DNA of 64,000 nucleotides from an uncultured Alphaproteobacteria bacterium (GTDB lineage Bacteria > Pseudomonadota > Alphaproteobacteria > Rs-D84). The notes below the pieces were generated by a model that was not told the DNA's origin, made no database searches, and was given only the letters and a program-made list of their open reading frames with translations. Of the stretch, positions 11,791-64,000 are shown piece by piece. Made by a program: the position numbers and the translations under genes. The first letter of the stretch is position 1, and each line of letters begins with the position of its first letter. The stretch lies in contig CAJOGC010000001.1 in NCBI GenBank assembly GCA_905234185.1, forward strand, positions 31,765-95,764. Direction: 5' to 3'.

Positions 11791-11851
11791 ATGAACCACC
11801 GTTTGATACGAACAACCGAACATATGTCCGGTTGTTCACATCGTTTTTATA

Positions 11852-30659: not shown

Positions 30660-30686
30660 CCCGCCCGACTGGGCGGTATGTTTTTA
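30660..30686 (+). terminator. rho-independent terminator after typA
   Basis: ccgcccgactgggcgg followed by tatgttttta. Confidence 0.5.
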
Positions 30687-31880: not shown

Positions 31881-32003
31881 TCACCACACCCACATCGAAC
31901 TATACACCCCACCCACCCGCGTTCGCAAGTATGAAATATCGTAAAAGTTTATTCTGTTGCAAAGCAATCATAAACCGGTTATCTTTCAATCAAAGGATTA
32001 AAC

Positions 32004-37826: not shown

Positions 37827-37842
37827 AGGCGCCCCCGTGGTT

Positions 37843-38757
37843 TTATTTATACATCTTGTTTATCATGACATCCGCGAATGATCCGGGTATCGGATGTTCC
37901 GTTCCACGATAAGTTGTTTTCTGGAAAAATGATTCTGATGTTAATTTATCAAATATCTTTTTATCAAATGGTTTATCCTGATACGCCCACCATAACGCGT
38001 GTGTGGGATCTTGATCAACGTGCGGCATTTTTTTGAAATGTTTTTTCGCGCGCGAATCATTTTCAACCAATGTTCTGAATAATAATTGGTGCATAAAATA
38101 ATCAAAAGTATGATTTTCGTGCATCCAATAATCCAAAATCATAGCACGCCACGCCGCTAACAAATAAGCCCCCCGTCGTGCGCGGATAAAACAATTCTGC
38201 ATAAACGAATATGGACTGCCCCCGATGTTATAATTATGCCCCGCCAAATATACAAAGAAGTCTTCGTCACTTATCCACTTTGGAATCGGCGATGTCACAA
38301 ACCCCGTTGCGTCAAGCCAATATCCGCCATAGCGATATAATAATTCTACACGACAAATATCCGCAAAATGTGCATTACCTATTTTCCCGTCACGATATTT
38401 ATTCACAATTTCGACCGGCAAATCGATATAGTCAAAAATCGTATCTGCATCCAAAATAACCAATTCCTGTTTACAGTGTTTTCTGACACTCTTGAAACAT
38501 GCCTTTACTAACTTTGGTGCCTTTGCTTCGCCTTGCAACCAGATTGTCCAAATTTTGTCGTTTTTATCATTGTTCACAACGGGTTCTTCAACAACCGTGG
38601 CCGCCGCGGGTAAATAGCGCCTAAAATATTTCGTTGCTATCTTGGCGGTATAATCTGTTCGAACACGGCGACGAGCGGCGCGTTCACGCCACGGCCAGTT
38701 TAATATATGACCATGAATAACAATTTTGGTCAACGCCCACATACGTGCTATTTTCAT
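37843..38757 (-). CDS. GT32/Och1-like (capsule-synthesis 'Caps_synth' DXD) glycosyltransferase
   Basis: 304 aa with …WTIWLQGEAKAPKLVKAC…ADICRVELLYRYGGYWLDATGF…, resembling the Gly_transf_sug family. Confidence 0.45.
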   Translation of the reverse strand: MKIARMWALTKIVIHGHILNWPWRERAARRRVRTDYTAKIATKYFRRYLPAAATVVEEPVVNNDKNDKIWTIWLQGEAKAPKLVKACFKSVRKHCKQELVILDADTIFDYIDLPVEIVNKYRDGKIGNAHFADICRVELLYRYGGYWLDATGFVTSPIPKWISDEDFFVYLAGHNYNIGGSPYSFMQNCFIRARRGAYLLAAWRAMILDYWMHENHTFDYFMHQLLFRTLVENDSRAKKHFKKMPHVDQDPTHALWWAYQDKPFDKKIFDKLTSESFFQKTTYRGTEHPIPGSFADVMINKMYK

Positions 38758-50270: not shown

Positions 50271-50306
50271 TTATTTCTGTATTATTTTACTATAAAGGAT
50301 ATAAAA

Positions 50307-51107
50307 ATGCAATCGGGGCTTTATATTGTTGGAACACCTATTGGAAACCTGGGCGATATGTCGCCACGTGCGGTTGAGATTCTGCGCAGTGTTGATTTAA
50401 TTGCCGCCGAAGACACACGCGTATTCGGTAAACTGGCATCGCATTTTGATATAAAAACCAAACGCATATCGCACCACGACCACAACGAACGCGATATTGT
50501 CCCTGATCTGATTGAAAAATTGCGTAACGGCGAATCAATCGCGGTGGTAAGTGACGCCGGCATGCCGGGAATCAGCGACCCCGGATTTCGCCTTGTGCGC
50601 ACCGCCCGCGCAGAAAAAATTCCGGTATTTGTCGTTCCCGGTCCAACCGCGGTAATTTCTGCACTGGTTTTGTCTGGATTTCCAACCGACCGATTTACAT
50701 TTTGCGGTTTCTATGATCCAAAGAAAATTCACGATGACAACCGTATTCGCCACACTATAATTTATTATGAAAGTCCAAACCGAATAATGGACACAATTGC
50801 CGATTTAGCACGCGTAATGCCCGAACGACAAATTGCGATTGTTCGTGAAATAACCAAAATTCACGAAGAAACGATTATCGGATATCCGGCGGATTTAATG
50901 CATATAGAGCCGCCACGTGGCGAAATTGTAATTGTTATCGCGCCCGCCCCCGAACATAAAATGTCGGACAGTGAAATTACAGAAATTGTTAATGATATTG
51001 CGTCCGCATCCACTAAATCGGCGGCGGTCGACTTGGCGCGCCGCACCGGTATATCAAAAAAAGAGGCATACAAACGCATGTTAAATCATGGGGGCGACAA
51101 TGATTAA
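50307..51107 (+). CDS. rsmI: 16S rRNA (cytidine1402-2'-O)-methyltransferase
   Basis: 266 aa with the tetrapyrrole-methylase fold (LYIVGTPIGNLGDMSPRAVEIL…AAEDTR). Confidence 0.85.
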   Translation: MQSGLYIVGTPIGNLGDMSPRAVEILRSVDLIAAEDTRVFGKLASHFDIKTKRISHHDHNERDIVPDLIEKLRNGESIAVVSDAGMPGISDPGFRLVRTARAEKIPVFVVPGPTAVISALVLSGFPTDRFTFCGFYDPKKIHDDNRIRHTIIYYESPNRIMDTIADLARVMPERQIAIVREITKIHEETIIGYPADLMHIEPPRGEIVIVIAPAPEHKMSDSEITEIVNDIASASTKSAAVDLARRTGISKKEAYKRMLNHGGDND

Positions 51108-51654
51108 GTTTGTGGGCGGTTTTGATACTGTTAAATCTTTACCCAAAACACAGTTTGCCGAATACGCCTTTGTCGGGCGCAGCAATGTTGGCAAATCTTC
51201 ATTAATAAACGCGATTGTCGGCGAAAAGATTGCACGCACATCAAACACCCCGGGGCGCACCCAGACATTAAACCTGTTCAATATAGACGACCGTGTAATG
51301 ATTGTTGACCTGCCCGGCTATGGCTATGCCCGTATTTCCAAGGTCGATGCTCTGCGTTGGTTGGAAAGACTGGAAGAATATTTAACCACCCGCCGACAAC
51401 TAAAAAGATTGTTCGTTTTGATTGATTCACGAATTGGTCCACGCGATTCTGATTTGGAATTAATGGAATTCTGTGACGAAAATGCGATTCAATATCAAAT
51501 TGTTTATACCAAGACGGACAAACGCATTCGCGAAAAGAATCAATTGAAAATCGAACATATTCATCACGGTGCAATGGTATCCGACATAATTGAAACATCG
51601 GCTGAAAAGAAAACCGGCATTGAAAGTCTAAGGAAAATCATTGGTATCAAATAA
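51088..51654 (+). CDS. engB: ribosome biogenesis GTP-binding protein YihA/EngB
   Basis: G1 GRSNVGKSSLIN, G3 DLPGYG, G4 TKTDK. Confidence 0.85.
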   Translation: MGATMIKFVGGFDTVKSLPKTQFAEYAFVGRSNVGKSSLINAIVGEKIARTSNTPGRTQTLNLFNIDDRVMIVDLPGYGYARISKVDALRWLERLEEYLTTRRQLKRLFVLIDSRIGPRDSDLELMEFCDENAIQYQIVYTKTDKRIREKNQLKIEHIHHGAMVSDIIETSAEKKTGIESLRKIIGIK

Positions 51655-54190
51655 GAATATTTTTACCGCATCAAATCCGGCGCGTATGTTGGACGCCCTG
51701 TGGAAAACCATTGAGGCATCGGGTGTGCCACTGGAATCAACATTGATTTTTTTACCAAGTCGCCGCGCAGTTCGCACTGTGGAACAAATGCTGGTCCAAA
51801 AACACGGGCATGCAATAATATTGCCACACCTGGTTGCACTTGGCGAAGGTGTTGATGAAACAGATGAATATGAACCCGCACAAACGGACACTATTTCAAA
51901 CACAGAACGCGTTGTTATACTCGCTAAGATATTATCAATGGATGCCAATATTGGAAACATATCGACCGCGCTGCCCGTGGCACACGATTTAATTCGTATG
52001 ACAGACTATCTCGAAAACGAAGGGATAGATATTGCAAAAATTAATTGGTCCGAATTAATCGATGAAAAATATTCTGAACATTTTCGTGGCAAGGCGCAGA
52101 TACTTGAAATATTATCTAAAAATATGCCCGCAATTACCCACAATCGCATGACAACAACGGCAAAACGTAATGCGGACATTCGTGAATGGATTTCGTTTTT
52201 ACAATCAAGAAACAATAAATACAAATCTGTAATTGTCTGTGGTTCCACCGCCAGTGTTCCCGCAACCGCGGATTTAATGGTGGCCATTGCTGAATTGCCT
52301 TTTGGTAAAATTATACTGTCCGGAAAAATCGCTGGACGCGAAAAAGACTTTGTTCTGCCAACCAATCCATATTATTCCGAATACAAATTCCTGACACGTA
52401 TCGGATGCACACCGTCCCATATCCAACCCATTGATGTCGGCCAATCTGACACTATTGATTTTATGAACGCGGCATTTGGCAATGATCCAACTAAGCCAAA
52501 TAATCCGGATGCGGTTTCTCATTGTCATTTAATAGAATGCGATCGCGAAAGTGTTGAAGCGTGCGCTGTTGCGGAAATCACTGCACGCGCAATCAAAGGC
52601 AATAAATCTGTTTTGGTAATAACGCCCGATGCCGCCGGGAACCAACGAATTGCCGCCGCGTTTGCTGCGCAAAACATACCGGCCGATTTTTCGGGTGGAA
52701 CACCAGCAACGATGCATCCTGTGGGACGCGCAATATTGAATTTATTTGATGATTGGATTGAAAAGAAATCAAATACATTCAACGAAATCTATACTGCGGA
52801 AAACCACAATTTATTTACAACAATTGTCAAATTAGTAGATGCGCGTCGTGATATTTGGGCACCGCAATTTAATCCAACGGACGAAACAAACATGCCCATA
52901 TGGACAGCAATCCGCGACATGTCAAACGCACTAATCAATAATGGAATCGAACTAAATGTGATGGATGCGCGCGCATTTATTGCGGACACATTATCTGGTG
53001 TTGTCATACGCGCAATCCCGGCAAACAATGTACATACATGCGTATTGGGGACAATAGAATCGCGCATGCAAACGGCCGATGTTGTGATCTTAACAGGTCT
53101 TAACGATGGAATGTTTCCATCGCGCGGATATGAAAATTCATGGTTGCCACGAAATATATCTGAAAAGATAGGTTTGCCGTCACCAGACCGAAAAGTATCA
53201 TTGATGTCACTTGACTTTATGAATTTGTCATGTGGGGCGGATGTATATTGGTTGCGCAGCAAAATATCTGGTGGAATTAAAACACCTGAATCACGCTTTC
53301 TTTCGCGTGTTGCGGCGCGTGGCGGAAATTTTGATACAAATGTTGCATCCGACATATTGTCTGTTGTCCACGAACAAGATGATGTTGAATTACAACCATT
53401 AAATTATTCTGCCCCGACACCACCCGCCGATTGGACGGACGTTTATGTCACAGAACTAGAATTACTTATACACAATCCATATGCATTTTATGCCCGCCAT
53501 ATATTACGGCTGTATCCGATTGATGATTATTGGGCCGAACCAGACGCCCGCCGTTTTGGTGATTTAGTTCACGATGTGGCTAAAAACGCAAAACCATGTG
53601 ATACCACCGAAACACTTGTTTCGCGCATGGATTCGATGGCACATGATATATTGGGAACAAACGGTGTGCTGTTTCATTTTTGGCACAAACGTTTTCTTGA
53701 AATTGCCCCATTTATCTTAGACGAAGTAAAAGCAACCCCAGATGCAGACTGTGAAATACCAGGCGAAGTCAAAATCCCCGTTGGCGATACCGGCGCAACC
53801 CGCACCGTTCGTGCACGCGCAGACCGCATTACAGACGGCGTTGTTATGGATATAAAAACGGGTGGCGCACCAACAAAATCGCAATTAATGGACGGCAATA
53901 TGCCACAATTACCACTAGAAGCATTCATGTTGCAATCTGGTGGATTCAAAATATCAACAACCATACGCAGCAAAACACCAATTATGGTATTTTTGCAATT
54001 ACGCAATAACGATGTCGCGCGAATTGAATATGATGCCGAAACAACACAACAAATGATTGATGCCGCCGTGGAAAAAACAACCGCATTATTTAATATGTAC
54101 ACGGCCGGAAACGCGCCATACGAATATCACGAAACCGGTGACATTCGGTACAAAGTGTACGATGATCTTGCACGAATTGACGATTTATAA
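51641..54190 (+). CDS. addB: double-strand break repair protein AddB (alphaproteobacterial type, PD-(D/E)XK nuclease C-terminus)
   Basis: 849 aa. The C-terminal nuclease motif is …RADRITDGVVMDIKTGGAPT… (D…D-x-K-T-G). It is inactive-helicase-like N-terminally. No addA follows it within the window. Confidence 0.7.
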   Translation: MVSNKNIFTASNPARMLDALWKTIEASGVPLESTLIFLPSRRAVRTVEQMLVQKHGHAIILPHLVALGEGVDETDEYEPAQTDTISNTERVVILAKILSMDANIGNISTALPVAHDLIRMTDYLENEGIDIAKINWSELIDEKYSEHFRGKAQILEILSKNMPAITHNRMTTTAKRNADIREWISFLQSRNNKYKSVIVCGSTASVPATADLMVAIAELPFGKIILSGKIAGREKDFVLPTNPYYSEYKFLTRIGCTPSHIQPIDVGQSDTIDFMNAAFGNDPTKPNNPDAVSHCHLIECDRESVEACAVAEITARAIKGNKSVLVITPDAAGNQRIAAAFAAQNIPADFSGGTPATMHPVGRAILNLFDDWIEKKSNTFNEIYTAENHNLFTTIVKLVDARRDIWAPQFNPTDETNMPIWTAIRDMSNALINNGIELNVMDARAFIADTLSGVVIRAIPANNVHTCVLGTIESRMQTADVVILTGLNDGMFPSRGYENSWLPRNISEKIGLPSPDRKVSLMSLDFMNLSCGADVYWLRSKISGGIKTPESRFLSRVAARGGNFDTNVASDILSVVHEQDDVELQPLNYSAPTPPADWTDVYVTELELLIHNPYAFYARHILRLYPIDDYWAEPDARRFGDLVHDVAKNAKPCDTTETLVSRMDSMAHDILGTNGVLFHFWHKRFLEIAPFILDEVKATPDADCEIPGEVKIPVGDTGATRTVRARADRITDGVVMDIKTGGAPTKSQLMDGNMPQLPLEAFMLQSGGFKISTTIRSKTPIMVFLQLRNNDVARIEYDAETTQQMIDAAVEKTTALFNMYTAGNAPYEYHETGDIRYKVYDDLARIDDL

Positions 54191-54198
54191 TATTCCGG

Positions 54199-54969
54199 TT
54201 ATTTCAATTTAAGCATCAAACCACAATGATCGGTCGGACGATTGGCCATGCGTGGGCACATATCTATTTCACAATTTGCAACCAGCGCACCCGCGGTCCG
54301 ATTACAAAGAAAATAATCCAAACGCAAACCCTGGCCATTGCCAACTGTATCACGCCCCCGATACCCATACCAAGTATACCCCGTATCATCCGGGTGTAAT
54401 TTACGCCACGCGTCCGTCCACCCCGAATTCAGCCACGACTGCATAATACTGCGTGCCGCCGGTGCCGCAATCGCAATACCCTCATAATTTTTCGGTTTCC
54501 AAACATCTCGATCTGTTAGTGCGACATTGAAATCCCCACCAATAATAACAGGTTCTTCGCTATCCAGATATCGGGCAATATATTCACCAAACGCACGCAT
54601 CCAATCCAATTTATATGGGAACTTTGGCGAATCAACCGTATCACCATTTGGCATATAAACATTTATTAGACGATATTGTCCATCGATTACACACTCTAAA
54701 AATCGGGCCGACGCATCGGCAAAATTAGGTAATCCGCGTGTCACATCTTCGATAGAAAAACGGGAAAAAACAGCAACCCCATTATAACTTTTCTGTCCAA
54801 AAACCTTGATATTATATCCATATTCATCAAACAAGTTATGCGGGAAAGACGCGTCTTCGACCTTTAATTCTTGGATCATAACCACATCATATTCGCCACC
54901 ACGCAAAATATCTAAAAAACTCTCTGCATGTGCCCGTATAGAATTGATATTTAATGTTAGTATTTTCAT
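54199..54969 (-). CDS. xth: exodeoxyribonuclease III
   Basis: 256 aa: MKILTLNINSIRA…, the EEP fold with …IQELK…, …GDFN… and a C-terminal …DHC… motif. Confidence 0.85.
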   Translation of the reverse strand: MKILTLNINSIRAHAESFLDILRGGEYDVVMIQELKVEDASFPHNLFDEYGYNIKVFGQKSYNGVAVFSRFSIEDVTRGLPNFADASARFLECVIDGQYRLINVYMPNGDTVDSPKFPYKLDWMRAFGEYIARYLDSEEPVIIGGDFNVALTDRDVWKPKNYEGIAIAAPAARSIMQSWLNSGWTDAWRKLHPDDTGYTWYGYRGRDTVGNGQGLRLDYFLCNRTAGALVANCEIDMCPRMANRPTDHCGLMLKLK

Positions 54970-55037
54970 GTTGGAAATCCATTTGATTATGTATTATAAT
55001 ACCCCCAACAGATTATTAAAAACAAGGATTTTATATC

Positions 55038-56618
55038 ATGAATATGTACAAGTTTTTGGAAAACACTGTTTCGCAGTTCCCAGATAGTTTATTTCTGGTT
55101 CGCGAAAAAGTCACATATGCCGATTTTATAGAATTGGTTAAAGCACGCGCCGCATCATTGCACAAAGCTGGTATTAAGTCGGGTGATGTCGTCGGTATTC
55201 TGTCACATAATATTCCAGAGTTCCCAATAACATTATTCGCAATTTGGTATTTGGGTGGTCGTGTATTGATGTTGGACACAAACCTAACACCATTTGAATA
55301 TGACAACATGACAAGCATCACAGATTGCCGTTTTGTTTGTGCTGAAGAATCATTTTTCTATAAAACGAAAAACTTTACATTTTATGACATTACCAAGAAA
55401 GACGGCAAACCAAATCCAGATTTGGAACCGGCTGCTGTTGAATCGTTGGATATCGCGACCCTGTCATTTACATCTGGTTCAACAGGAACACCGAAGATTG
55501 TACCATTAACACATTTTAATTTAATCGAGTGTGCGCATTCCTTGAAAGATATGCAGGAATACATTGAACAGGGATATTACATGTATGGTTTCTTGCCAAT
55601 GTATCACATTTTCGGATTTGCTGTGGAAATATTGGCAACAATCGAATATGGGTGTGGTGTAATTTTACAACCAAGCATAAACCCAAAATTACTTATGGCA
55701 GATTTTGCAGAATTCAAACCACAAATTATACCAGCGGTACCACGTTTGTACGAAATCATCCGCAATCGTATTATTGATCAATTGAAAGCGCGCCATTTGT
55801 GGTTATTTGCTTCGATTGTATTGAAATACGGTAAGTTTTTAGAAAAGATCGGCCTTGGGTTTCTGGTACGCAAAGTCCAAGATCCTGTTCGCAACATATT
55901 TGGTGGTCGTGTCACTTTGTTGATTGCTGGTGGTGCTGCGACAAAACCAGAGGTTGAAACATTCTATGAACGCCTTGGAATGCCATTTATTCAGGGTTAT
56001 GGTATGACAGAAACGGTTGGACCAATCTGTATTTCCAAACGAACAAAAAAACGTCTGCCTTTTGCATTTGGTGCACCAACCACAAATAACGAGGTTGATA
56101 TTCGCAATAAAGATGCTGATGGCATCGGTGTTTTGTGGGTTCGTGGGCACCAGGTGTTTGACGGTTATTTGAACAACCCAGAAGTCAATGCCCAGGTATT
56201 TGATGAACATGGGTTCTTTAATACCGGTGACTTGGTATCTATGGATAAAAACGGTGAATTACATTTTGCCGGACGTAAGAAACAAGTGATTGTTCTTGAT
56301 TCTGGTAAAAATGTTTATCCAGATGAATTGGAAGCACTGTTTATGAAAATACCAGGTGTAAAAAATGTCGCCGTATTTGAACATAGACAGGACAACAAGG
56401 CTGTTGCATATGCCGTATTCAGTGTTGAAGAAGGAATGACAATTGAAAAATTGGCCACAGCGGTTGCAAATGCGAATAAAAAACTTGCGTCCTATAAATG
56501 GGTCACACATTTCGCGATGACAACGGACGATTTACCAACGACCAGCACGCAAAAGGTCAAGCACCATGTCGTGCGCCAAAACTTGATTGATGGAAAATAT
56601 CCGATTCAGAAACAGTAA
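55038..56618 (+). CDS. AMP-dependent synthetase / long-chain acyl-CoA ligase
   Basis: 526 aa with the AMP-binding motif LSFTSGSTGTPKIV and the …YGMTE… and …GDL… motifs. Confidence 0.75.
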   Translation: MNMYKFLENTVSQFPDSLFLVREKVTYADFIELVKARAASLHKAGIKSGDVVGILSHNIPEFPITLFAIWYLGGRVLMLDTNLTPFEYDNMTSITDCRFVCAEESFFYKTKNFTFYDITKKDGKPNPDLEPAAVESLDIATLSFTSGSTGTPKIVPLTHFNLIECAHSLKDMQEYIEQGYYMYGFLPMYHIFGFAVEILATIEYGCGVILQPSINPKLLMADFAEFKPQIIPAVPRLYEIIRNRIIDQLKARHLWLFASIVLKYGKFLEKIGLGFLVRKVQDPVRNIFGGRVTLLIAGGAATKPEVETFYERLGMPFIQGYGMTETVGPICISKRTKKRLPFAFGAPTTNNEVDIRNKDADGIGVLWVRGHQVFDGYLNNPEVNAQVFDEHGFFNTGDLVSMDKNGELHFAGRKKQVIVLDSGKNVYPDELEALFMKIPGVKNVAVFEHRQDNKAVAYAVFSVEEGMTIEKLATAVANANKKLASYKWVTHFAMTTDDLPTTSTQKVKHHVVRQNLIDGKYPIQKQ

Positions 56619-56620
56619 AC

Positions 56621-56654
56621 AAAAAACCGACCATTTGGTCGGTTTTTATTTTTT
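56621..56654. terminator. bidirectional rho-independent terminator
   Basis: aaaaaaccgaccatttggtcggtttttatttttt lies between convergent genes. Confidence 0.65.
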
Positions 56655-56670
56655 CATCTTTTTTATCGTC

Positions 56671-57396
56671 CTATTCTATCACAAAACTGCGCGGATAATA
56701 ATCACTATAGAAACGTCCATCAGTGGCGGTGAATTTCAAAACACAATAGTTTGGATCGGCCACCCCGCCTGGATAATATTCTGTATCACCATCACGCCAA
56801 ATCATCTCTTTGGACTTTACATCCGTTAACACTTCCATTGTGCCACGCAACATAACCCCAATGAATTTTTCTGAATCACAGAAATATATACATGCTTTTG
56901 GATTCGCCCGGTAATGAGCCACACGCAAAGAAAAAGTATTGGTTGTAAAATAAAACACTCGTATGCCTTCACGAACGCGTGGCGACAACATCGCTTTGGT
57001 ACACGGGAACCCGTCTTGGTCAACCGATGATATAAATGTAATTGGCAATGTATCCGCCATCTTAGCGACAAGTTCTTTGACCCCTAACAAAGATGGATTT
57101 TCTGGCATATCATTTGAAATGGTTATTTGGCTGCGCCAACGTTTCAGATGCGGAAAATACATTTTCATTTGGCCGATATATTCTTCTTTTGTTATTGGGT
57201 GTTCCAGATTCTTATTAACTTCATCAATAAACCCCGCACAATGTTCTATCATTTCGTCCATAGTACAATCTTGGACAAATTTTCCGTTTTTATAACAATA
57301 AATACAATAATCTGAATTTTTGGAACCGTCCGCATTTGTTCCATAAAGCGATTCATCCGCCATCGGCATCGCACAACTTTGACAAACATGTGACAT
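56671..57396 (-). CDS. zinc-ribbon domain fused to a pyridoxamine-5'-phosphate-oxidase-like (split-barrel, FMN-binding) domain protein
   Basis: The N-terminus MSHVCQSCAMPM…YCIYCYKNGKF forms a 4-Cys ribbon. The C-terminal ~140 aa resemble the PNPOx-like general-stress-protein fold. Confidence 0.4.
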   Translation of the reverse strand: MSHVCQSCAMPMADESLYGTNADGSKNSDYCIYCYKNGKFVQDCTMDEMIEHCAGFIDEVNKNLEHPITKEEYIGQMKMYFPHLKRWRSQITISNDMPENPSLLGVKELVAKMADTLPITFISSVDQDGFPCTKAMLSPRVREGIRVFYFTTNTFSLRVAHYRANPKACIYFCDSEKFIGVMLRGTMEVLTDVKSKEMIWRDGDTEYYPGGVADPNYCVLKFTATDGRFYSDYYPRSFVIE

Positions 57397-57461
57397 ATTA
57401 TGACCCTTTTTATAATACGGGAAAAGTATATATTAGTGTATCAACCCGTGTCAATTTGTTC

Positions 57462-57490
57462 TTGTAAATTTTGTCTTTTTCTGATATAAT
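57462..57490 (+). promoter_or_regulatory. sigma70-like promoter upstream of the Mtd-N-like gene
   Basis: TTGTAA at 57462-57467, a 17-bp spacer and TATAAT at 57485-57490. It is followed by a leader hairpin gggacggtttagtcccg + tttttt at 57505-57527. Confidence 0.45.
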
Positions 57491-57563
57491 ATCGATCGCA
57501 CATGGGGACGGTTTAGTCCCGTTTTTTATTTCCAAATTTCAACAAAAACCAAAGGAAAACAAA

Positions 57564-58049
57564 ATGTCACGACAAATACAAATTCGGCGCGGCAGCGCGG
57601 CCGAACATAGCACGTTTACCGGTGCAATCGGTGAAATCACAATGGATACAACCAATAAAACACTGCGTGTACATGACGGTGAAACCGCGGGCGGAACTCC
57701 ACTTGCGCGTGCCGATGAATTAACAGACTTGGAATCCAGCATTACACAAAATGTAATGAAAAAGATTTTACCGGACTGGTCCGCCGTTGTTGATCAAAAC
57801 ATCAACACCGACTATACCGCGGCAAAGAATGGATACCTGTTGGTATATTATGACGATTACGACGCATCATCAACAATAACAATAAATGGATCAACATATA
57901 CAATAAATGCAATAGCCACTGCCCCGGCCGGCGCCAGCAGCGGTTCCATATGCATTCCTGTTGCGGCCGGTGACACATACAGATATTCACCGGCGCGTGC
58001 CATGGGAACAATTGCAACCTATATCAAATTTATTCCGTGCCAGGAATAG
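57564..58049 (+). CDS. small protein with an Mtd / phage tail-fibre N-terminal-like domain
   Basis: The start is taken at MSRQIQIRRGSAAEHSTFTGAIGEITMDTTNKTLRVHDGETAGGTPLARADEL…, with a Shine-Dalgarno aaagga 8 nt upstream. This closely parallels the N-terminal segment recalled for Bordetella phage BPP-1 Mtd (…FRGGTTAQH.TFTGA..EITVDTDK.T…VHDG.TAGG.PLA). That comparison is from memory. Total length about 162 aa. Confidence 0.5.
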   Translation: MSRQIQIRRGSAAEHSTFTGAIGEITMDTTNKTLRVHDGETAGGTPLARADELTDLESSITQNVMKKILPDWSAVVDQNINTDYTAAKNGYLLVYYDDYDASSTITINGSTYTINAIATAPAGASSGSICIPVAAGDTYRYSPARAMGTIATYIKFIPCQE

Positions 58050-58790
58050 TTATTTATTCATATAACTTGTGCGAATGCGATGCCGCATATCGTGAAACGG
58101 TATCAGTTTTATAAGAAACATTATAATTTTATGTCGCAGTGTTGTCCGCAACCGAAACTGGGCGAACAGTGGTGTAATAACCGCTGTGTCGCCTTCGGTT
58201 GTGGGACGCCCCAAATCATCAAAAGTTTTGGCGTGCACATTATATTTAACAATATTTGGTGCTAAATCCGTGCGAACAACGGACCGCTGATTTTCCATAT
58301 GTTCAATAATCATAAAATCTATGGTTTTTCCGAATTTTGCCGAAACCCGATTACACAGGTCAACAATCACATCGTTTGGTGTATTGTGCACCTGGGAAAA
58401 CCAGATTAATAAAATGCGAGATTTTTTATGCATATTATTTATAAAACGCGCAATACGGCGATTATACTTTTCGGTCACATCCGGCATTGATTCCAACAAA
58501 TTTTTCCCCGCCGGAAAATCATGATAATAATAAAAACCGTTCCGAATATTTTCATAATAATCGCATTTGTCATCGTTAAGGACATTTGGATCCTTGGGTA
58601 AAAACTTTATATCATCAATATTCAAGAAGTCAGCAAAATCAGTCAAAATAAGATTCATTCGTGTTTCAAACGACGCATTGGTCAGCCAATCGAACGGCCC
58701 CGATGTAATTCGCATTTTACATTTGTTCATATACATCGCGGTCGCACAATCACGCCCAATAGAATAAATAATATCATATGATTTATGCAT
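58050..58790 (-). CDS. DUF1796-like (putative papain-like) protein commonly found in glycan loci
   Basis: 246 aa with …IYSIGRDCATA… and …SGPFDW… motifs remembered from the DUF1796 family. Tentative. Confidence 0.35.
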   Translation of the reverse strand: MHKSYDIIYSIGRDCATAMYMNKCKMRITSGPFDWLTNASFETRMNLILTDFADFLNIDDIKFLPKDPNVLNDDKCDYYENIRNGFYYYHDFPAGKNLLESMPDVTEKYNRRIARFINNMHKKSRILLIWFSQVHNTPNDVIVDLCNRVSAKFGKTIDFMIIEHMENQRSVVRTDLAPNIVKYNVHAKTFDDLGRPTTEGDTAVITPLFAQFRLRTTLRHKIIMFLIKLIPFHDMRHRIRTSYMNK

Positions 58791-58804
58791 TGTTATTTTT
58801 CCTA

Positions 58805-59683
58805 TTAGTCTGGTGCAAAGAAAGCGATACCACTGTCCAATGTATCTATTTCCCTATGATTCATATACCAATCATACGATTTAGCAATATGCCCCACATC
58901 CAACGCACGACGGCCGTTCAAGAATAAATCATAACACAAAATTTTAGCGGTTGGACCACATATCACCACAAAAATTTTATTTTTAGCGCATTTCATGCAA
59001 TCATTGAAAATTTCATCATATTTTGCAAACGCGTCTGATGATGGCGCATAAACATATTCCACAGAATTTGCATTGTCAAAAATATTATGCGTAATTTTAT
59101 CAAACACGGTTTTTCCACAAACGATGACAATGTCTTTTTTGTTCCAAATTTTTCTGAATCCGGAAAAATAAGCCTTTTTATCGATTCCACGATTTGCAAA
59201 TCCCAATGTCATTTCCGCGGCGTAATAAGTATTTTTATCAAAATTTATATATTGTTCCAATATATTACGATACTTATTTCCATTATTCCGCCAAAAATCG
59301 CGCGCATATGGTTGTAAACAAGATTTATCTTTGTATAACACAGATGGTATTCCAACCATCAAATTTTTATCACATGCCGACAAAACCTGCTTTAACCGCG
59401 TTGCAATCAATGGTGATGCGGACTGAAAAGGAATACTGTCACCGCACATTAAACTTATTTCTCCATCACCAAAGCGCACCATGCTGGCCTTGGATTTAAT
59501 CAAGAAATCCAAACTTTCCATAATTCCACAAACCGTATGCGAATCACCATTTTTAACCGCATCGGATATTTCGTAAAATAAATTGTCATACACCTGGGCT
59601 AAATCGATTGGTTCATGGGTATGTGAACGCAGGTCAATATGTGACAACAGTTTTATGTTTCTGAACAATTTTCGTAATGACAT
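58805..59683 (-). CDS. GT-D type glycosyltransferase (DUF1792-like)
   Basis: 292 aa with the …SMVRFGDGEISLM… motif, the hallmark of GT-D/DUF1792. Confidence 0.5.
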   Translation of the reverse strand: MSLRKLFRNIKLLSHIDLRSHTHEPIDLAQVYDNLFYEISDAVKNGDSHTVCGIMESLDFLIKSKASMVRFGDGEISLMCGDSIPFQSASPLIATRLKQVLSACDKNLMVGIPSVLYKDKSCLQPYARDFWRNNGNKYRNILEQYINFDKNTYYAAEMTLGFANRGIDKKAYFSGFRKIWNKKDIVIVCGKTVFDKITHNIFDNANSVEYVYAPSSDAFAKYDEIFNDCMKCAKNKIFVVICGPTAKILCYDLFLNGRRALDVGHIAKSYDWYMNHREIDTLDSGIAFFAPD

Positions 59684-59684
59684 T

Positions 59685-60095
59685 TCACTGTTCCTTTTTA
59701 TTATTTATTTCGACCAATTCAACCAACATCATATTTTTCAACATTAAAAAACATACGCGCCGAAAATAAACCGCATCTACGATTGGTTTTACAACAATCG
59801 CGCCATTTGTGACAAATTCACGCACAGATTGTTCAATATCGTCTGTTTCATATGCAAAATGATAAAATTTGGTCCCTTTATCTAAATATGCCGTTAATGG
59901 TCCGTCATCAGAAATATTTTCCAGCAATTCCAATTGTGGTTGCCCATCTGATGAAATAAACAACCCACGAATTTTTTGTTCGTTATCAATAAACACATCG
60001 GATACCGGTTTGTACCCAAGGATTTCAAAATATTTCAATTCACGTTCTATATTGCGACATGCCACACCGATATGATGAAATTTGGTTTTTGCCAT
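59685..60095 (-). CDS. VOC (glyoxalase / methylmalonyl-CoA epimerase-like) family protein
   Basis: 136 aa with …FHHIGVACRNIERELKYF…GYK… and paired beta-alpha-beta-beta-beta modules. Confidence 0.55.
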   Translation of the reverse strand: MAKTKFHHIGVACRNIERELKYFEILGYKPVSDVFIDNEQKIRGLFISSDGQPQLELLENISDDGPLTAYLDKGTKFYHFAYETDDIEQSVREFVTNGAIVVKPIVDAVYFRRVCFLMLKNMMLVELVEINNKKEQ

Positions 60096-61657
60096 TACAT
60101 AACCTCTATCTTTAATCCGGTTAAATCGATATTTTCCGGTATTTCATATGCAACACACCCAGATGCATCCAATTCTGTTCCAGCCAATTCGGCTAACCAC
60201 TGCATCGCCGGTCCATTGCGTTCGCCGTGTTTGTAATTTATTTCTATGACATTATCCGTGCCCAGTTGTTTGGCCGCGACCGCAAACAAATATGGCAACA
60301 TAACATTTTCTAATTTGCGACCCAACGCACGACAAGACACCGTCATTTCGTCCAAGACCAGGTATGCACCGGATTTGTGTGTTGCCAAGATAGCAATCAC
60401 ACCACTGTCTGATAAATTGTCGGACATTCTAATTGTGACGATTGCCCGACCTGGGGTTGTCATAAATTCATTAACCACCGTTTCGTTATACCGTGCATAG
60501 GTCAAAATAAATTGATTCGTTTTTCCAAAAAGTTCCGCAACACGCGTCATTTGTGACAAATCGTTCACATGATATTCTAAACAAATTCCCAATTTTGCGA
60601 AATATTCAGCCGGCGTCAGACTCTGTGCCAGTTTTGCGCGTTCAATATTTGCGCGTATATCATCGGCACGCAATTTATCCTCACTTGAATGTTTCAGTTT
60701 TAATAATCCCGGATAGTATTTCATAACCGAACAAATATTATCAGTTGCCAATATGGTGTGAACATTTGTTGTTGCGACATTTTCTATTTCGGCGGGATTA
60801 TCATCGATAAACAAGATTGCATCCGTACCAATGTTTAATGTTTTTGCAATTTCAATAATGTTTTCATCTTTTGGTTTCCAATTTACCCGAGCCACCGTAA
60901 AATCGTCCCAACGCAAGATAAAATCGGTGCGTTTTTGGAACATGTTTATAACATCAACTTCCTCATTTTTTGATGCAATGCACAGAAAGAATCCATTGTC
61001 TTTCAGGCCTTTCAACTGTTGTTGAAATTCGTTGTTTGGAATAATTTTATCAACACCATCTTCGCCCAAAACACCGCTGTATAATGTGTTGTCTAAATCA
61101 ACTACAACCGCCTTTAATGCCGGCGCGACCATGGCGGGGAAATACCGCATACCCAACACGCGCGCAATTTCCAAACACGATTTATTTGATAATCGGGTTC
61201 CTGAAAAAGACTCTTTGGCAACATCGTATGCGGCGTCACCGAATATGCCGATGACATCGGTAATACGCAACGCAAAACAATCGGTCGTTAAATTATCTAA
61301 ATTCAATGCGGCATCACCGGTATATGCAACCAAAATTGGCGCCGTTGTCTGTGACCGTAAAACATTAACCCGTTCGGATAAGAAACCAACCAAATCATTT
61401 GATTTATAACGATTTGTATCCAACCAAATTAACTGAATATTGGCATCGTGAAAATCAAAATTCAGGCTGTCATCATAATCACTGTATACAAAATCAGCAA
61501 TATAACCAGATTCGTGTAAAAACGCATTTATAACACTGGCAACCATTTCAAACGAGTGGTTTCGATACACGGCGACACGCAGTTTTGTGCCACCAATCGG
61601 TGCGTTTAATAAATCAAGTCGTTTAAGGTTGTCGGTGTATAAATTGGTGTTTAGCAT
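60095..61657 (-). CDS. FkbH-like HAD-superfamily (IIIC) domain protein
   Basis: 520 aa with the HAD motif I VVDLDNTLYSG and …CIASKNEEVDV… typical of FkbH. The start overlaps the ACP stop. Confidence 0.6.
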   Translation of the reverse strand: MLNTNLYTDNLKRLDLLNAPIGGTKLRVAVYRNHSFEMVASVINAFLHESGYIADFVYSDYDDSLNFDFHDANIQLIWLDTNRYKSNDLVGFLSERVNVLRSQTTAPILVAYTGDAALNLDNLTTDCFALRITDVIGIFGDAAYDVAKESFSGTRLSNKSCLEIARVLGMRYFPAMVAPALKAVVVDLDNTLYSGVLGEDGVDKIIPNNEFQQQLKGLKDNGFFLCIASKNEEVDVINMFQKRTDFILRWDDFTVARVNWKPKDENIIEIAKTLNIGTDAILFIDDNPAEIENVATTNVHTILATDNICSVMKYYPGLLKLKHSSEDKLRADDIRANIERAKLAQSLTPAEYFAKLGICLEYHVNDLSQMTRVAELFGKTNQFILTYARYNETVVNEFMTTPGRAIVTIRMSDNLSDSGVIAILATHKSGAYLVLDEMTVSCRALGRKLENVMLPYLFAVAAKQLGTDNVIEINYKHGERNGPAMQWLAELAGTELDASGCVAYEIPENIDLTGLKIEVM

Positions 61658-61875
61658 TTTAATTCCTTGACCTTTTTAACAATCGCGTCCATCGATTTCA
61701 GTTGTGGAATATCGGCGGGATTAAATGAAATATCAAATTCTTCTTCGACTGTCATGATAATTTCAATTGACTTTAATGAATCCCAATTTTCAACGGTTGT
61801 GCTGGATACATTATCGCCAACCTTGATGTCTTTTTTCAGAATCTTGGATAATATTTGTGCTATTTTTTCTTCCAT
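61651..61875 (-). CDS. acyl carrier protein (stand-alone)
   Basis: 74 aa with the …VENWDSLKSIEIIMTVEEEF… DSL phosphopantetheine-attachment motif. Confidence 0.6.
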   Translation of the reverse strand: MEEKIAQILSKILKKDIKVGDNVSSTTVENWDSLKSIEIIMTVEEEFDISFNPADIPQLKSMDAIVKKVKELKC

Positions 61876-61877
61876 TA

Positions 61878-62633
61878 CTATTCTCCTTGGTCAAACTTTC
61901 TTAGAACATATTCTTGGGACGCAATCGTATAACCGAAAAACAAATCAAGATTAACAATAGGTTGATTGTTTGATGAAATGCTGGTGATAAGTTTATTCAT
62001 CCCATGTTGCTGATAATATTTCAATGCCAAATCAAACATCATAAATCCGAACCCTGTATTTTGATATTGTTCGAAGATACCTTCCAATAAATCATCAACA
62101 ATATGTGTTTCTGGATCCATTTTAACAAGTCCAAATCCCACAGGTGAATCTTTGAATGTATAAAGAAAAAGGTGGGCATTCGGATCATTAACTAAATCCA
62201 TAATCCAGTTTCTGTACCGGCGACACGATGTATCGCGAACCAATTTTGGATCAAGATATATTCTGTCGGTGTGAAACATGTCGTCAGACATTAAATCGGT
62301 GACACTGTGCCACGCTTGTTCGGTTTTTTCGATATACTGTTGAACCAATGCATTACGCATTTTCGCCAATGTTGCCGGGGGTTCATAATCAACCAACGAT
62401 TTTTCCATATGAAATTGGGTTTCCATAAATCTGAACCCAATGTTTTCCAACGCATGCACAATTTCAAGATTTCCAGTGGGAAGCTTTATCGTCACATATT
62501 TTCCCGTAAATTCATCGGAATTTATACGATCAACAATGGAACGAATGTCCGACAAGTCGTCCACAGACACACGCATTTCCACGGCGTCAACCCCGATATT
62601 TCTTTTTTCCCAAAACGCATCAATTATTTGCAT
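61878..62633 (-). CDS. GNAT-fold acyltransferase-like protein
   Basis: 251 aa with …YQNTGFGFMMF… (Q/R-x-x-G-x-G motif A-like). Confidence 0.35.
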   Translation of the reverse strand: MQIIDAFWEKRNIGVDAVEMRVSVDDLSDIRSIVDRINSDEFTGKYVTIKLPTGNLEIVHALENIGFRFMETQFHMEKSLVDYEPPATLAKMRNALVQQYIEKTEQAWHSVTDLMSDDMFHTDRIYLDPKLVRDTSCRRYRNWIMDLVNDPNAHLFLYTFKDSPVGFGLVKMDPETHIVDDLLEGIFEQYQNTGFGFMMFDLALKYYQQHGMNKLITSISSNNQPIVNLDLFFGYTIASQEYVLRKFDQGE

Positions 62634-63918
62634 TTGTTAAATCCTTTATTATTTGCATATATCTATCACGCACTATATCGCGTTCATATGTTGCCAGCCA
62701 GTATTTATATTCGTCATCTATTATTTTGCGTCGTGCCGCCGGATGTTTTAACAAATATTCAACACCACGTTTCATGTCCGCAACATTATCGAACATGTAC
62801 GGATAATCGGTTGGCATATATTCGTGAAAAGAAAATATAGGTTTTTCACGATTTATTTTCACCACAGACGCCACCCGCATACGCATTAAATCGATTTGTG
62901 TCATTGCCGAAGATACTGGAAAACTGTCCACAAAAACATCGGCACATTGAAACAATAAATCATACGCGGCGGTCATCGGCACAATATGTAAACGCGCACG
63001 CAAATCATCATGTCCAACAAAAATACTATTTAGTATAGCGCATTCTTTATCGTTCATATCTGAGATAACCAAATGATGTAATTTTTTGTTATCGCGCAAC
63101 AATTCCAAAATCATATTGAAATACGGCGATGTATCACCGTCAAACATTTTATATGACGAACCGCCCGTCACGGTTAATGGTGCATCGACCGGTATCCCAA
63201 GTTCAGATTTTTTTGCATCTATTTCAGATTTGGAATAATAATGTGTATCGTCACGCCCCACAGATTGCAGACCAATAATTTGACAGTTATGTAAATGACG
63301 TTTTTCTTCGGTAATTTTTTTAATTGTTGGCATGCCTTCTAGTATCACATCTGCCAATGTCATGCCGGCATTTGGAAAATGACTTGCATGATTGAAAAAC
63401 ACTATTTTCATTCCGGTGTTGCGTTTTAATAGATGCATAACCGCCGTAAACAGCAAATCCCACATATGAATATACACAAATGATACGGACGGACAATCAT
63501 CAGCGATTTGGTTGTACAAATATATTAAATCATTTACAAAATTTTTATGCGATAAATTTATTCCAGAAATTGTCGCACAATCCTTAATCTTTGCCAACAT
63601 TGTCGGCGCACAGCGAGTCGTTTCGTCCAACATGGAACAAAATATATGCATATCTGCACGATCCGACATAGATTCGATCTGGTTCACCAAACAGAGTGTA
63701 TGTCCACCAACATCATACAATGCCGTTGCAAAAAAGCCGACACCATTTTTATTAGAATGCGGAATATGAAATTCAGATTTATGTTTAGAATATATCGCAT
63801 CGGCTAAATCACAAATACGGGTATCAATATCAGATACATCGAATTCACGCGCATCATATTTCATGTTAAATGCGCGACGGATTTTTTTATATCTTATTTG
63901 GCTTAACCAGTCGAACAT
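62620..63918 (-). CDS. hypothetical protein in a polysaccharide-modification cluster (possible GT-B-like)
   Basis: 432 aa if it starts at MFDWLSQ (63918), overlapping the upstream stop as TAATG. The ORF is open to 63942. Confidence 0.4.
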   Translation of the reverse strand: MFDWLSQIRYKKIRRAFNMKYDAREFDVSDIDTRICDLADAIYSKHKSEFHIPHSNKNGVGFFATALYDVGGHTLCLVNQIESMSDRADMHIFCSMLDETTRCAPTMLAKIKDCATISGINLSHKNFVNDLIYLYNQIADDCPSVSFVYIHMWDLLFTAVMHLLKRNTGMKIVFFNHASHFPNAGMTLADVILEGMPTIKKITEEKRHLHNCQIIGLQSVGRDDTHYYSKSEIDAKKSELGIPVDAPLTVTGGSSYKMFDGDTSPYFNMILELLRDNKKLHHLVISDMNDKECAILNSIFVGHDDLRARLHIVPMTAAYDLLFQCADVFVDSFPVSSAMTQIDLMRMRVASVVKINREKPIFSFHEYMPTDYPYMFDNVADMKRGVEYLLKHPAARRKIIDDEYKYWLATYERDIVRDRYMQIIKDLTNANN

Positions 63919-64000
63919 TATAACCCCTTGATAAATTCGCATGCGGTGTTTATTACGCGTTCTTGGTCATAATCGGTCAAATCAAAATACAACGGCAATC
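63918..64000 (-). CDS. C-terminal fragment of a further gene of the cluster (runs off the window end)
   Basis: Minus-strand frame …LPLYFDLTDYDQERVINTACEFIKGL, stop at 63918-63920. Confidence 0.3.
   Translation of the reverse strand, partial: LPLYFDLTDYDQERVINTACEFIKGL

Follow-up and report, generated by a model that had tools for sequence, protein, structure and literature searches.

A putative glyceryl-ACP cassette in a sugar operon of an uncultured alphaproteobacterium points to N-acylation of an amino sugar

FkbH/OzmB enzymes convert 1,3-bisphosphoglycerate via a glyceryl-S-enzyme intermediate into glyceryl-ACP (PMC9057759, PMC7489565), and all biochemically characterised FkbH enzymes in the cited papers serve polyketide synthase (PKS) extender units or tetronates. 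What, then, do an FkbH-like protein and a stand-alone ACP do among the glycan genes of an uncultured alphaproteobacterium? We addressed this question in a stretch of 64,000 nucleotides (the window), for which an earlier note had listed six genes (FkbH, ACP, GNAT, VOC, GT-D and DUF1796) as tightly packed or overlapping on one strand. All six were found on the minus strand and are backed by HMM matches (Table 1). Between 58050 and 64000, seven translationally coupled genes encode, in order, a GT-B protein, a WecD-like GNAT, ACP, FkbH, VOC, GT-D and DUF1796, neighbouring genes overlapping by 1-14 nt or lying 1-14 nt apart. The GT-B ORF is an operon member that the earlier note had not named. Contig L001, 100% identical to window positions 50095-64000 (13.9-kb overlap), shows that the operon runs past the window end and adds genes for a WecE-class dTDP-4-amino-4,6-dideoxyhexose transaminase, a WbsX glycosyltransferase and a GT2. 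The full transaminase gene corresponds to window-equivalent positions 63918-65051, so the window end cuts the cluster. In total, the operon comprises 10 genes from GT2 to DUF1796, about 9.8 kb when counted together with a 176-aa ORF that lies 93 bp upstream and may or may not belong to it. All operon proteins are predicted to be soluble, and the region probably represents the distal stretch of an operon gained by horizontal transfer.

Our preferred reading, to which we assign a probability of roughly 0.6, is that the operon builds an oligosaccharide in which the amino group of a 4-amino-4,6-dideoxyhexose carries a hydroxy-acyl group of three carbons, most probably glyceroyl, delivered by the route FkbH to ACP to VOC to GNAT.

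Table 1. Predicted features of the operon within the window
Feature	Position	Strand	Evidence
DUF1796 protein, last operon gene	58050-58790	-	PF08795, 46.9 bits (cut-off 23)
GT-D (DUF1792) glycosyltransferase	58805-59683	-	PF08759, 198.7 bits; RFGDGE motif present
VOC-fold metalloenzyme (predicted)	59685-60095	-	PF13669, 66.5 bits
FkbH-type glyceryl-ACP loader (predicted)	60095-61657	-	TIGR01686, HAD-IIIC HMM matches
Dedicated ACP, 74 aa	61651-61875	-	PF00550, 24.7 bits (cut-off 20.8)
WecD/RffC-like two-domain GNAT	61878-62633	-	PF00583, 25.1 bits (cut-off 20.7)
GT-B-fold glycosyltransferase, 432 aa	62620-63918	-	AF2 model and Foldseek
WecE-class dTDP-4-amino-4,6-dideoxyhexose transaminase, 3' end (last 83 nt)	63918-64000	-	L001 100% identity and HMM

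The FkbH and ACP assignments both scored above their HMM cut-offs. FkbH matched TIGR01686 with 297.7 bits (cut-off 146.65, E=9e-89, profile positions 1-319 of 323) and the HAD-IIIC model with 77.8 bits (cut-off 35.75). The protein consists of a flavodoxin-like N domain (residues 1-178), a HAD-IIIC phosphatase domain and a C-terminal acyl-transfer domain. The HAD-IIIC motifs are present as DLDNT (187-191), S229, K263 and DDN (285-287), and in an alignment of 18 sequences the motifs DxDxT, S, K and DDN as well as S441-C442-R443 of the C domain are invariant. The AF2 model of the N domain has a pLDDT of 89.7, and BF1531/3slr was its sole structural match. In the ACP, the sequence W31-D32-S33-L34 (WDSL) was seen, with Ser33 as the phosphopantetheine site.

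To place this pair in a wider context, we compared 81 FkbH loci, 79 of them from other genomes and spread over many phyla. An ACP gene was a neighbour in 77/81 loci, a VOC gene in 66/81 and a DegT aminotransferase gene in 48/81. FdtA, RmlA, RmlB and sugar N-acyltransferases of the LbH and AAC(3) types also recur, and across phyla this FkbH subfamily is embedded in sugar loci. Furthermore, in 30/80 loci the VOC domain is fused to a GNAT in a single 330-aa protein directly after FkbH-ACP (a Rosetta-stone fusion). These data support the view that the VOC protein is no chance neighbour but belongs obligately with the acyl donor.

The most likely acyl acceptor is the amino group of the dTDP-4-amino-4,6-dideoxyhexose made by the WecE-class enzyme encoded just past the window. 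This transaminase (L001 6607-7740) scored 594.7 bits against NF008687 (cut-off 375) and 568.4 bits against TIGR02379 (cut-off 434.85), and thus reaches the WecE equivalog threshold, as in the wecE/wecD (rffA/rffC) pair of E. coli ECA, which makes dTDP-Fuc4NAc. The window GNAT likewise covers almost all of the WecD profile (NF008212, positions 34-229 of 232), but its score of 35.4 bits is far below the cut-off of 219. It carries the CoA/Ppant-binding motif QNTGFG (Q-x-x-G-x-G). Unlike the E. coli system, the operon has an acyl-ACP donor cassette inserted after the GNAT gene and lacks a WecF or WzxE-type partner.

In relatives, the conserved block reads DegT transaminase, GT-B, GNAT, a slot immediately downstream of GNAT, GT-D and, further on, DUF1796. 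In the window, as in L085 and L087, this slot contains ACP-FkbH-VOC; in L086 it contains KASIII-ACP, and in L082 it is empty. The order DegT, GT-B, GNAT is kept in all four relatives, GT-D orthologues (43-46% identity) come after the slot in L082, L085 and L086, and all four have a DUF1796 orthologue (44-47% identity) at the cluster's distal end, with or without an ACP cassette. In some cases, additional glycan or flagellin-glycosylation genes come after DUF1796. The GT-B gene lies directly 3' of the transaminase gene in L009, L070 and L073, and likewise downstream of it in L078, with a 12-nt gap. The GT-B ORF had no Pfam or NCBIfam match; an alternative ATG at 63942 would extend the protein to 440 aa. 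Its AF2 model (pLDDT 94.7) had XcOGT/GT41 and GT4 enzymes as top Foldseek PDB matches (E about 1e-14, TM 0.62-0.68).

Gene position, the variable slot and the GNAT-VOC fusions elsewhere suggest that the GNAT is the acyltransferase, and we propose that it is an N-acyltransferase using acyl-ACP. However, the cassette-less L082 encodes a GNAT orthologue with 57% identity, so the window GNAT may simply use acetyl-CoA, and GNAT sequences did not separate by cassette type. The GNAT would then make dTDP-Fuc4NAc or dTDP-Qui4NAc, while another enzyme, for example DUF1796 or the FkbH C domain, would use glyceryl-ACP for O-acylation of the glycan or for modification of some other residue. The retained CoA motif fits this. 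So does the annotation of DUF1796, which suggests a papain-like Cys enzyme, since some acyltransferases have this fold. On the other hand, the occurrence of DUF1796 both with and without the cassette does not tie it to ACP, the variable cassette always lies directly 3' of GNAT, and in 30 loci it is the VOC protein, the partner of FkbH-ACP, that is physically fused to a GNAT. We therefore regard acetyl-CoA use by the GNAT as unlikely.

Which acyl group reaches the GNAT may depend on the VOC protein. Its best PDB match was C. acetobutylicum glyoxalase I (2qh0/3hdp, E=4e-18), followed by methylmalonyl-CoA epimerases (E about 1e-5); in HMM searches it scored far under the equivalog cut-offs of both families. 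The His/Glu metal ligands are identical to those of 2qh0 in the alignment, and across 54 family members H8, E56 and H79 do not vary, while the conservation of E126 is 94%. Glyoxalase I and methylmalonyl-CoA epimerases both act on the carbon adjoining a thioester. The genes around the window VOC, however, point to acyl-ACP and sugar chemistry instead of glutathione or propionate metabolism. We propose that it acts on glyceryl-S-ACP. Instead of changing stereochemistry, it might alter the acyl group itself, for example by beta-elimination of the 3-OH to pyruvoyl-ACP, so that the sugar would carry pyruvoyl or some other rearranged C3 acyl group. An enolate or enediolate beside the thioester, as expected from its nearest relatives, would make beta-elimination feasible, and FkbH-derived lactate starter units in PKS systems go through dehydration. 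Such a rearrangement is also improbable, about as much so as acetyl-CoA use, given the operon's lack of a reductase gene able to make lactyl and the findings from Campylobacter jejuni.

The C. jejuni genes cj1299-cj1302, beside the pathway for di-O-methylglyceroyl-pseudaminic acid, are the closest precedent in our comparison. Pseudaminic acid of strain NCTC 11168 bears a 5-N-(2,3-di-O-methylglyceroyl) group (PMC3068675), a glycerate-derived N-acyl group that retains both oxygens and co-occurs with a VOC gene. Di-O-methylglyceroyl sugars are missing from C. jejuni strains that lack cj1301 (VOC) or in which cj1302 (FkbH) is a pseudogene (PMC7099621); this correlation covers two strains only, which have other gene differences too, and the link was not drawn by the authors of that study. 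In NCTC 11168, genes for ACP, a methyltransferase, VOC and FkbH lie beside an N-acyltransferase gene. Like the window, the flagellin glycosylation locus cj1295-cj1304 has the ACP/VOC/FkbH trio, adjoining a sugar aminotransferase and an N-acyltransferase, and the two FkbH proteins share 43% identity over their full length, both being 520-aa three-domain proteins. The acceptor in C. jejuni is a nonulosonic acid, whereas we propose a dTDP-4-amino-4,6-dideoxyhexose here; the acyltransferase is AAC(3)-like instead of a GNAT, and the locus additionally has a SAM methyltransferase, DUF2172/Cj1295, KASIII and a second ACP. In the literature searched, genetic tests in this locus were found for cj1295 and none for the FkbH, ACP or VOC genes.

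The acyl group had been suggested to be of glycerate or lactyl type. The glycerate type is supported by these comparisons, while lactyl has no specific support because the operon contains no reductase or dehydratase gene.

Glyceryl-ACP might also feed a polyketide or tetronate pathway elsewhere, its place among glycan genes being coincidental. The FK520, oxazolomycin, tetronomycin and tetromadurin systems share with the window an FkbH domain (TIGR01686), a discrete ACP and the same expected chemistry from 1,3-bisphosphoglycerate to glyceryl-S-ACP, and the characterised enzymes named at the outset all serve such products. But phmmer searches of all window ORFs with KASIII representatives and Pfam annotation of the larger ORFs revealed neither a KS, PKS or FabH-type gene nor an FkbI/FkbK-type dehydrogenase or O-methyltransferase; an FkbG methyltransferase and a FabH-like tetronate synthase are likewise lacking. 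The window FkbH has the extra flavodoxin-like domain, for which the 366-aa OzmB is too short (judged by length), and its partner is a VOC protein, not listed in the methoxymalonyl and tetronate pathway descriptions consulted. Together with the translational coupling of the FkbH-ACP genes to sugar genes and the residence of the whole FkbH subfamily in sugar loci across phyla, this makes a polyketide role very improbable. Standard fatty-acid or lipid A synthesis is hardly credible, even though the operon encodes an ACP and genes for LptF/G (23000-24058) and Lnt indicate that the organism produces LPS or LOS, since the ACP scored only about 17-31 bits against housekeeping AcpP models with cut-offs of 66-106, the operon has no Fab or Lpx genes and the substrate loaded by FkbH is a C3 hydroxy acid instead of a fatty acid. 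HMM results, ACP scores and locus comparison thus all favour the ACP-dependent glycan decoration without a PKS that the earlier note had put forward.

ACP-dependent N-acyl decoration of deoxy-amino sugars occurs in the perosamine tetronate of Vibrio cholerae O1 (RfbK-O) and in the modified viosamine of Pseudomonas syringae, with its 3-hydroxybutyryl genes. As in the window, a dedicated ACP and a small acyl-building set in a glycan locus lead to an unusual N-acyl group on a 4-amino-4,6-dideoxyhexose. There, however, ligase/reductase or KASIII/FabG chemistry builds the acyl groups, with no FkbH drawing on a glycolytic intermediate, and we know of no VOC partner in these systems.

For the glyceroyl route, dTDP-4-keto-6-deoxyglucose would be aminated by WecE, an enzyme class assigned by HMM. 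RmlA and RmlB, absent from the 64-kb window and the 10 kb beyond, would supply this substrate. By analogy with characterised FkbH/OzmB enzymes, whose motifs are conserved here, FkbH would use 1,3-bisphosphoglycerate to form glyceryl-S-Cys442 with loss of phosphate and pass the glyceryl group to Ser33 of holo-ACP. VOC would deprotonate C2 of the 2-hydroxyacyl thioester via a metal-bound enediolate, with epimerisation of D- to L-glyceryl-ACP as the most likely outcome, and the WecD-like GNAT would acylate the 4-amino group with the unit carried by ACP. GT-B, GT-D, WbsX and GT2 would then assemble the glycan. We infer a surface glycan as the target; LOS core or protein are candidate acceptors because the operon has no Wzx, Wzy or ABC exporter gene.

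The literature searched contained no biochemical demonstration of any step of this pathway in glycan systems, and no enzyme adding glycerate to an amino sugar was found identified for any bacterium. Here, a three-gene module from antibiotic-type chemistry has most likely been repurposed to put glycerate on an amino sugar.

Within the window, the operon under study comprises seven minus-strand ORFs, which are joined by overlaps of 1–14 nt or separated by gaps of 1–14 nt. It lies on a bacterial chromosome segment (mean GC of the window 0.424) that harbours housekeeping genes (encoding RecA, RuvA/RuvC, MnmE, YebC, MutL, FtsK, SecD and SerRS) as well as Gram-negative envelope genes (MltA, LppC, Lnt and LptF/G). 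In its final 83 nt, the window covers the 3′ end of a WecE gene, and the cluster thus extends beyond it. An ENA metagenome contig (L001), which encodes an identical FkbH and shows 100% identity over all 13,906 overlapping bases, carries, in the same orientation and upstream of the gene for GT-B, three further genes that encode the WecE-class transaminase, a WbsX-family glycosyltransferase and a GT2 glycosyltransferase. Located 93 bp further upstream on this contig is an ORF of 176 aa that may be the first gene of the operon. The GC content of the whole cluster is 0.38, compared to 0.42–0.445 in its flanks, and the cluster therefore looks acquired.

Several other genes of the window caught our attention (see the table). 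A gene for a protein with an Mtd_N domain, the N-terminal domain of phage tail fibres, converges on the operon; its ORF, including the stop codon, ends one base short of where the DUF1796 ORF ends, and its GC content is 0.47 versus 0.38 for the cluster. A prophage or seroconversion origin of the cluster, to which this neighbour had pointed, was rejected, as no further phage genes flank the cluster and the gene is absent from related loci. At a distance of 1.4 kb from the cluster there is a gene for an AMP-binding enzyme. It was dismissed as the acyl-ACP ligase of the pathway, since it occupies the opposite strand, two unrelated genes lie in between and it is not found beside related loci. Elsewhere, an endoribonuclease domain and apolipoprotein N-acyltransferase domains share one ORF, which may be a true fusion, or else a pair of genes taken for one.

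Coordinates of the operon, of other features in the window and of corresponding features in related loci
Feature	Sequence	Position	Strand	Content
Operon, seven ORFs	window	63942 down to 58050	-	DUF1796 ORF ends at 58050
GT-B glycosyltransferase	window	62620-63918	-	432 aa from the later start taken by gene callers; longer ORF 440 aa
Mtd_N protein	window	57564-58049	+	PF18454, E=1e-15; 161-192 aa; longer ORF from 57471
AMP-binding enzyme	window	55038-56618	+	acyl-CoA/ACP ligase-like
Second glycosyltransferase island	window	30684-38757		GT61, GT92/GT2_4, GT2, RgpF-like, GT2_4, GT1, GT2, Caps_synth
YbeY/Lnt ORF	window	4199-6211	-	670 aa; YbeY (residues 29-133), LNT_N, CN_hydrolase
GNAT-VOC fusion	L044	11742-12725
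GNAT-VOC fusion	L073 (Vibrio ruber)	11710-12708
Slot after GNAT	window			ACP-FkbH-VOC
Slot after GNAT	L085	10759-12936		ACP-FkbH-VOC
Slot after GNAT	L087			ACP-FkbH-VOC
Slot after GNAT	L086	10759-12203		KASIII and ACP
Slot after GNAT	L082 (Campylobacter lanienae-like)	10768-11003		empty; 235 bp non-coding DNA

An earlier note had assigned FkbH, ACP, GNAT, VOC, GT-D and DUF1796 proteins to this operon, and HMM searches upheld each of the six. FkbH scores 297.7 bits with TIGR01686 (curated cut-off 146.65; profile positions 1–319 of 323) and 77.8 bits with the HAD-IIIC model (cut-off 35.75). In an alignment of 18 sequences, 43–76% identical to the window protein, the residues of the HAD motifs (DxDxT, S/T, K, DD) are invariant (D187, D189, T191, S229, K263, D285 and D286), as are S441-C442-R443 in the C-terminal domain. 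Judged by its conservation within these 18 homologues, C442 is a candidate for the cysteine that carries the acyl-S-enzyme intermediate. In the FkbH/OzmB reaction, 1,3-bisphosphoglycerate is converted into a glyceryl-S-enzyme, the phosphate is removed and the glyceryl group is passed on to a discrete ACP (PMC9057759, PMC7489565). By analogy with OzmB, Mad7 and Mad14, the window FkbH would convert 1,3-bisphosphoglycerate to glyceryl-S-ACP (PMC9057759, PMC7489565). Its residues 1–178 form a flavodoxin-like domain with the invariant motifs RNHxFE (R32-N33-H34-x-F36-E37) and YDD (Y61-D62-D63), for which the only structural match is the uncharacterised BF1531 (3slr); OzmB, with 366 aa, is too short to carry such a domain. 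The ACP (74 aa) scores 24.7 bits with PF00550 (cut-off 20.8) and harbours D32-S33-L34 after a tryptophan. With the models for the housekeeping AcpP it reaches at best 30.7 bits, below their cut-offs of 66–106.

The operon differs from the known FkbH-ACP systems in its other genes. In the methoxymalonyl-ACP pathway (FkbG-H-I-J-K type), an FkbK-type 3-hydroxyacyl-CoA dehydrogenase, an FkbI-type acyl-CoA dehydrogenase and the O-methyltransferase FkbG accompany FkbH-ACP, whereas none of these partners was found in the operon or in any other annotated ORF of the window. Likewise, the tetronate 'glycerate utilisation' operon combines a FabH-like condensing enzyme with FkbH-ACP, whereas the window does not contain a match to KASIII. 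The latter search used representatives from related loci as queries, which also gave no match in the window for RmlA, RmlB or FdtA; RmlA and RmlB were not found in the 10 kb beyond it either.

The third member of the trio, VOC, scores 66.5 bits with PF13669. Its His/Glu/His/Glu metal site is conserved among 54 sequences, H8, E56 and H79 being invariant and E126 94% conserved. It stays below the equivalog cut-offs for both methylmalonyl-CoA epimerase (TIGR03081, 56.4 vs 114.95) and glyoxalase I (TIGR00068, 19.1 vs 120). The closest solved relatives are the 'glyoxalase I' of Clostridium acetobutylicum (2qh0/3hdp, E=4e-18), followed by methylmalonyl-CoA epimerases at about 1e-5. Glyoxalase I and methylmalonyl-CoA epimerase both form an enolate or enediolate at the carbon adjoining the thioester, and the product of glyoxalase I is a 2-hydroxyacyl thioester. 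The VOC protein would act on the glyceryl thioester. Because the metal site is kept and the nearest solved relatives share this thioester-adjacent chemistry, the simplest reaction would be C2 epimerisation of glyceryl-ACP.

To see where related FkbH proteins occur, we compared 81 loci, consisting of 79 from a scan with one genome per species and two copies of the source locus. The 79 loci span Campylobacterota, Gastranaerophilales, Clostridia, Desulfovibrionaceae, Vibrio, Verrucomicrobia and others. The nearest homologues belong to uncultured gut Alphaproteobacteria and to Campylobacterota, the best match in the scan being a gut alphaproteobacterial MAG (58% identity), and one database search returned at least 1802 homologues of the subfamily. 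Using the window proteins as queries, we found an ACP near FkbH in 77 of the 81 loci, a VOC in 66 and a DegT-type aminotransferase in 48. Clustering of the neighbouring ORFs revealed genes for an FdtA-type 3,4-ketoisomerase (33 loci), RmlB (23), RmlA (13), a NeuB-like synthase (8) and two kinds of N-acyltransferase, LbH sugar N-acyltransferases (15) and AAC(3)-like enzymes (12). These recurrent neighbours show that the 520-aa FkbH subfamily resides in amino-sugar pathways and not in PKS clusters. The same clustering gave KASIII in 30 loci, with an accompanying second ACP in 27 and an SDR in 21. These genes stand alongside ACP-FkbH-VOC in many loci of Campylobacterota and Gastranaerophilales (about 25–30 loci within L005–L067). 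They likely form a 3-hydroxyacyl-ACP module, and the products of such loci may be two distinct acyl groups or a hydroxy-acid of greater length.

The sugar in question can be narrowed down from the transaminase, which scores above the cut-offs of the WecE equivalogs (NF008687, 594.7 bits vs 375; TIGR02379, 568.4 vs 434.85), leaving Fuc4N or Qui4N as the C4 configuration. Enzymes of the WecE class make dTDP-4-amino-4,6-dideoxy-galactose or -glucose from dTDP-4-keto-6-deoxyglucose. The GNAT matches positions 34–229 of 232 of the WecD profile and scores below the WecD/RffC equivalog cut-offs (NF008212, 35.4 bits vs 219; TIGR02382, 30.2 vs 195.1); a PDB sequence search returned no useful solved relative. 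GT-D, with its RFGDGE motif, reaches 198.7 bits with PF08759 (cut-off 27) and is below the SP_1767 subfamily model (TIGR03728, 189 bits vs 290.75). The DUF1796 protein scores 46.9 bits with PF08795 (cut-off 23), and no solved relative was found by PDB sequence search.

Another protein of the operon, not named in the earlier note, has no Pfam or NCBIfam match. Its AlphaFold model (432 aa, pLDDT 94.7, built on 35 homologues) predicts a GT-B glycosyltransferase, with bacterial OGT-like GT41 and GT4 enzymes as the nearest solved relatives. The top Foldseek matches are GT41 enzymes at a TM score of only about 0.62 and 12–15% identity, GT4 enzymes score equally, and the protein does not have a TPR region. 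In Campylobacter, homologues of this GT-B protein have a PseH-like GNAT fused to their C-terminus and are annotated as PseH (P0210 and about 20 others, 584–635 aa). Such fusions point to physical cooperation between the GT-B protein and an amino-sugar N-acyltransferase. Membrane segments were not predicted in any operon protein, and the operon does not encode a flippase, polymerase or ABC exporter. Since the enzymes are all soluble and Wzx/Wzy are absent, the glycan acceptor could be the LOS core or a protein, for example flagellin, that is glycosylated in the cytoplasm. The second glycosyltransferase island of the window, adjoining recA, also consists of soluble enzymes, eight in total, without a flippase or polymerase.

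Two lines of evidence tie GNAT and VOC to the acyl donor. First, in 30 of 80 loci a single protein of about 330 aa, with GNAT at its N-terminus and VOC at its C-terminus, is encoded directly after FkbH-ACP; the same four activities are encoded by separate genes in the window. These fusion loci mostly contain FdtA, RmlA and RmlB (the 3-amino-3,6-dideoxyhexose pathway) as well as a GT1-like protein of 436 aa. Second, we compared the genomic places of relatives of the window GNAT, which belongs to a small family (20 homologues). The relatives keep a block of transaminase, GT-B, GNAT, a variable slot, GT-D and, at the distal end, DUF1796; the five proteins outside the slot have identities to the window proteins of 71–76%, 41–44%, 53–57%, 43–46% and 44–47%, respectively, and DUF1796 is always part of the block. 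The slot holds either of two acyl-ACP cassettes or is empty (see the table). An exchangeable cassette right after the N-acyltransferase is expected if the cassette sets which acyl group GNAT installs, and GNAT would then take glyceryl-ACP as its donor. Possibly, GNAT uses acetyl-CoA instead, because the same GNAT is present without a cassette in L082, a locus with RmlA/C/D/B on its upstream side and, downstream, a Maf flagellin glycosyltransferase. A grouping by cassette type is not seen among the GNAT sequences.

The closest precedent comes from Campylobacter jejuni. The flagellin of strain NCTC 11168 carries pseudaminic acid with a 5-N-(2,3-di-O-methylglyceroyl) group, for which cj1295 is needed (PMC3068675), and in the literature searched cj1295 is the sole C. 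jejuni gene tied to this sugar. The homologous C. jejuni stretch encodes PseB, PseC, Cj1295, an AAC(3)-like acyltransferase, ACP, a SAM methyltransferase, VOC, FkbH, KASIII and ACP. In strain 12664, cj1302 (FkbH) is a pseudogene, and cj1301 (VOC, annotated as 'epimerase') is absent from strain 12661; as reported separately from these gene variants, both strains are without dimethylglyceric-acid sugars (PMC7099621). From these two strains we infer, in a link that is ours and not the authors', that loss of cj1301 or cj1302 is connected to the missing sugars. By analogy, the C. jejuni precedent argues that the trio would yield a glycerate skeleton retaining its two oxygens and that VOC would be required. 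For the N-glyceroyl group on the Pse of Tannerella forsythia, reviews as late as 2019 report that no candidate for the modifying enzyme could be found (PMC5378307, PMC6388019). Our full-text literature searches found no paper that tests or characterises FkbH, ACP or VOC in a glycan pathway.

The earlier note had read the operon as an ACP-dependent pathway of glycan decoration with a glycerate- or lactyl-type acyl group, and ACP-dependent decoration holds up in the domains, the operon, the co-occurrence of the trio, the fusion and the slot. The domain identities, catalytic motifs, operon structure and co-occurrence statistics are direct observations, and the locus is best described as a PKS-type glyceryl-ACP loader and a VOC protein recruited as a cassette that donates the acyl group when a deoxy-amino sugar is N-acylated. 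Going further, we tentatively propose, with a probability of about 0.45, that ACP-FkbH-VOC is the general, unrecognised basis of N-glyceroyl groups, including O-methylated ones, on bacterial amino sugars and nonulosonic acids. As a portable cassette for donating acyl groups, the trio would take glycerate directly from glycolysis and serve at least four N-acyltransferase partners (WecD-like GNAT, VOC-fused RimJ-like GNAT, LbH and AAC(3)-like). Its VOC would represent a novel type of 2-hydroxyacyl-thioester epimerase, and the window an evolutionary snapshot of the cassette after insertion into an exchangeable slot.

When surface sugars carry unusual N-acyl groups, this affects antigenicity, phage receptors and immune recognition. 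If the cassette is the glyceroyl donor, the decoration could be traced across thousands of genomes by a simple genomic marker, and a PKS-type building-block enzyme would be linked to glycan chemistry. Moreover, FkbH, ACP, VOC and GNAT would then make a tractable four-protein system to reconstitute in vitro and to use in glyco-engineering of sugar nucleotides. Although its host is uncultured, the locus offers a concrete, testable answer to the origin of N-glyceroyl groups on bacterial sugars.
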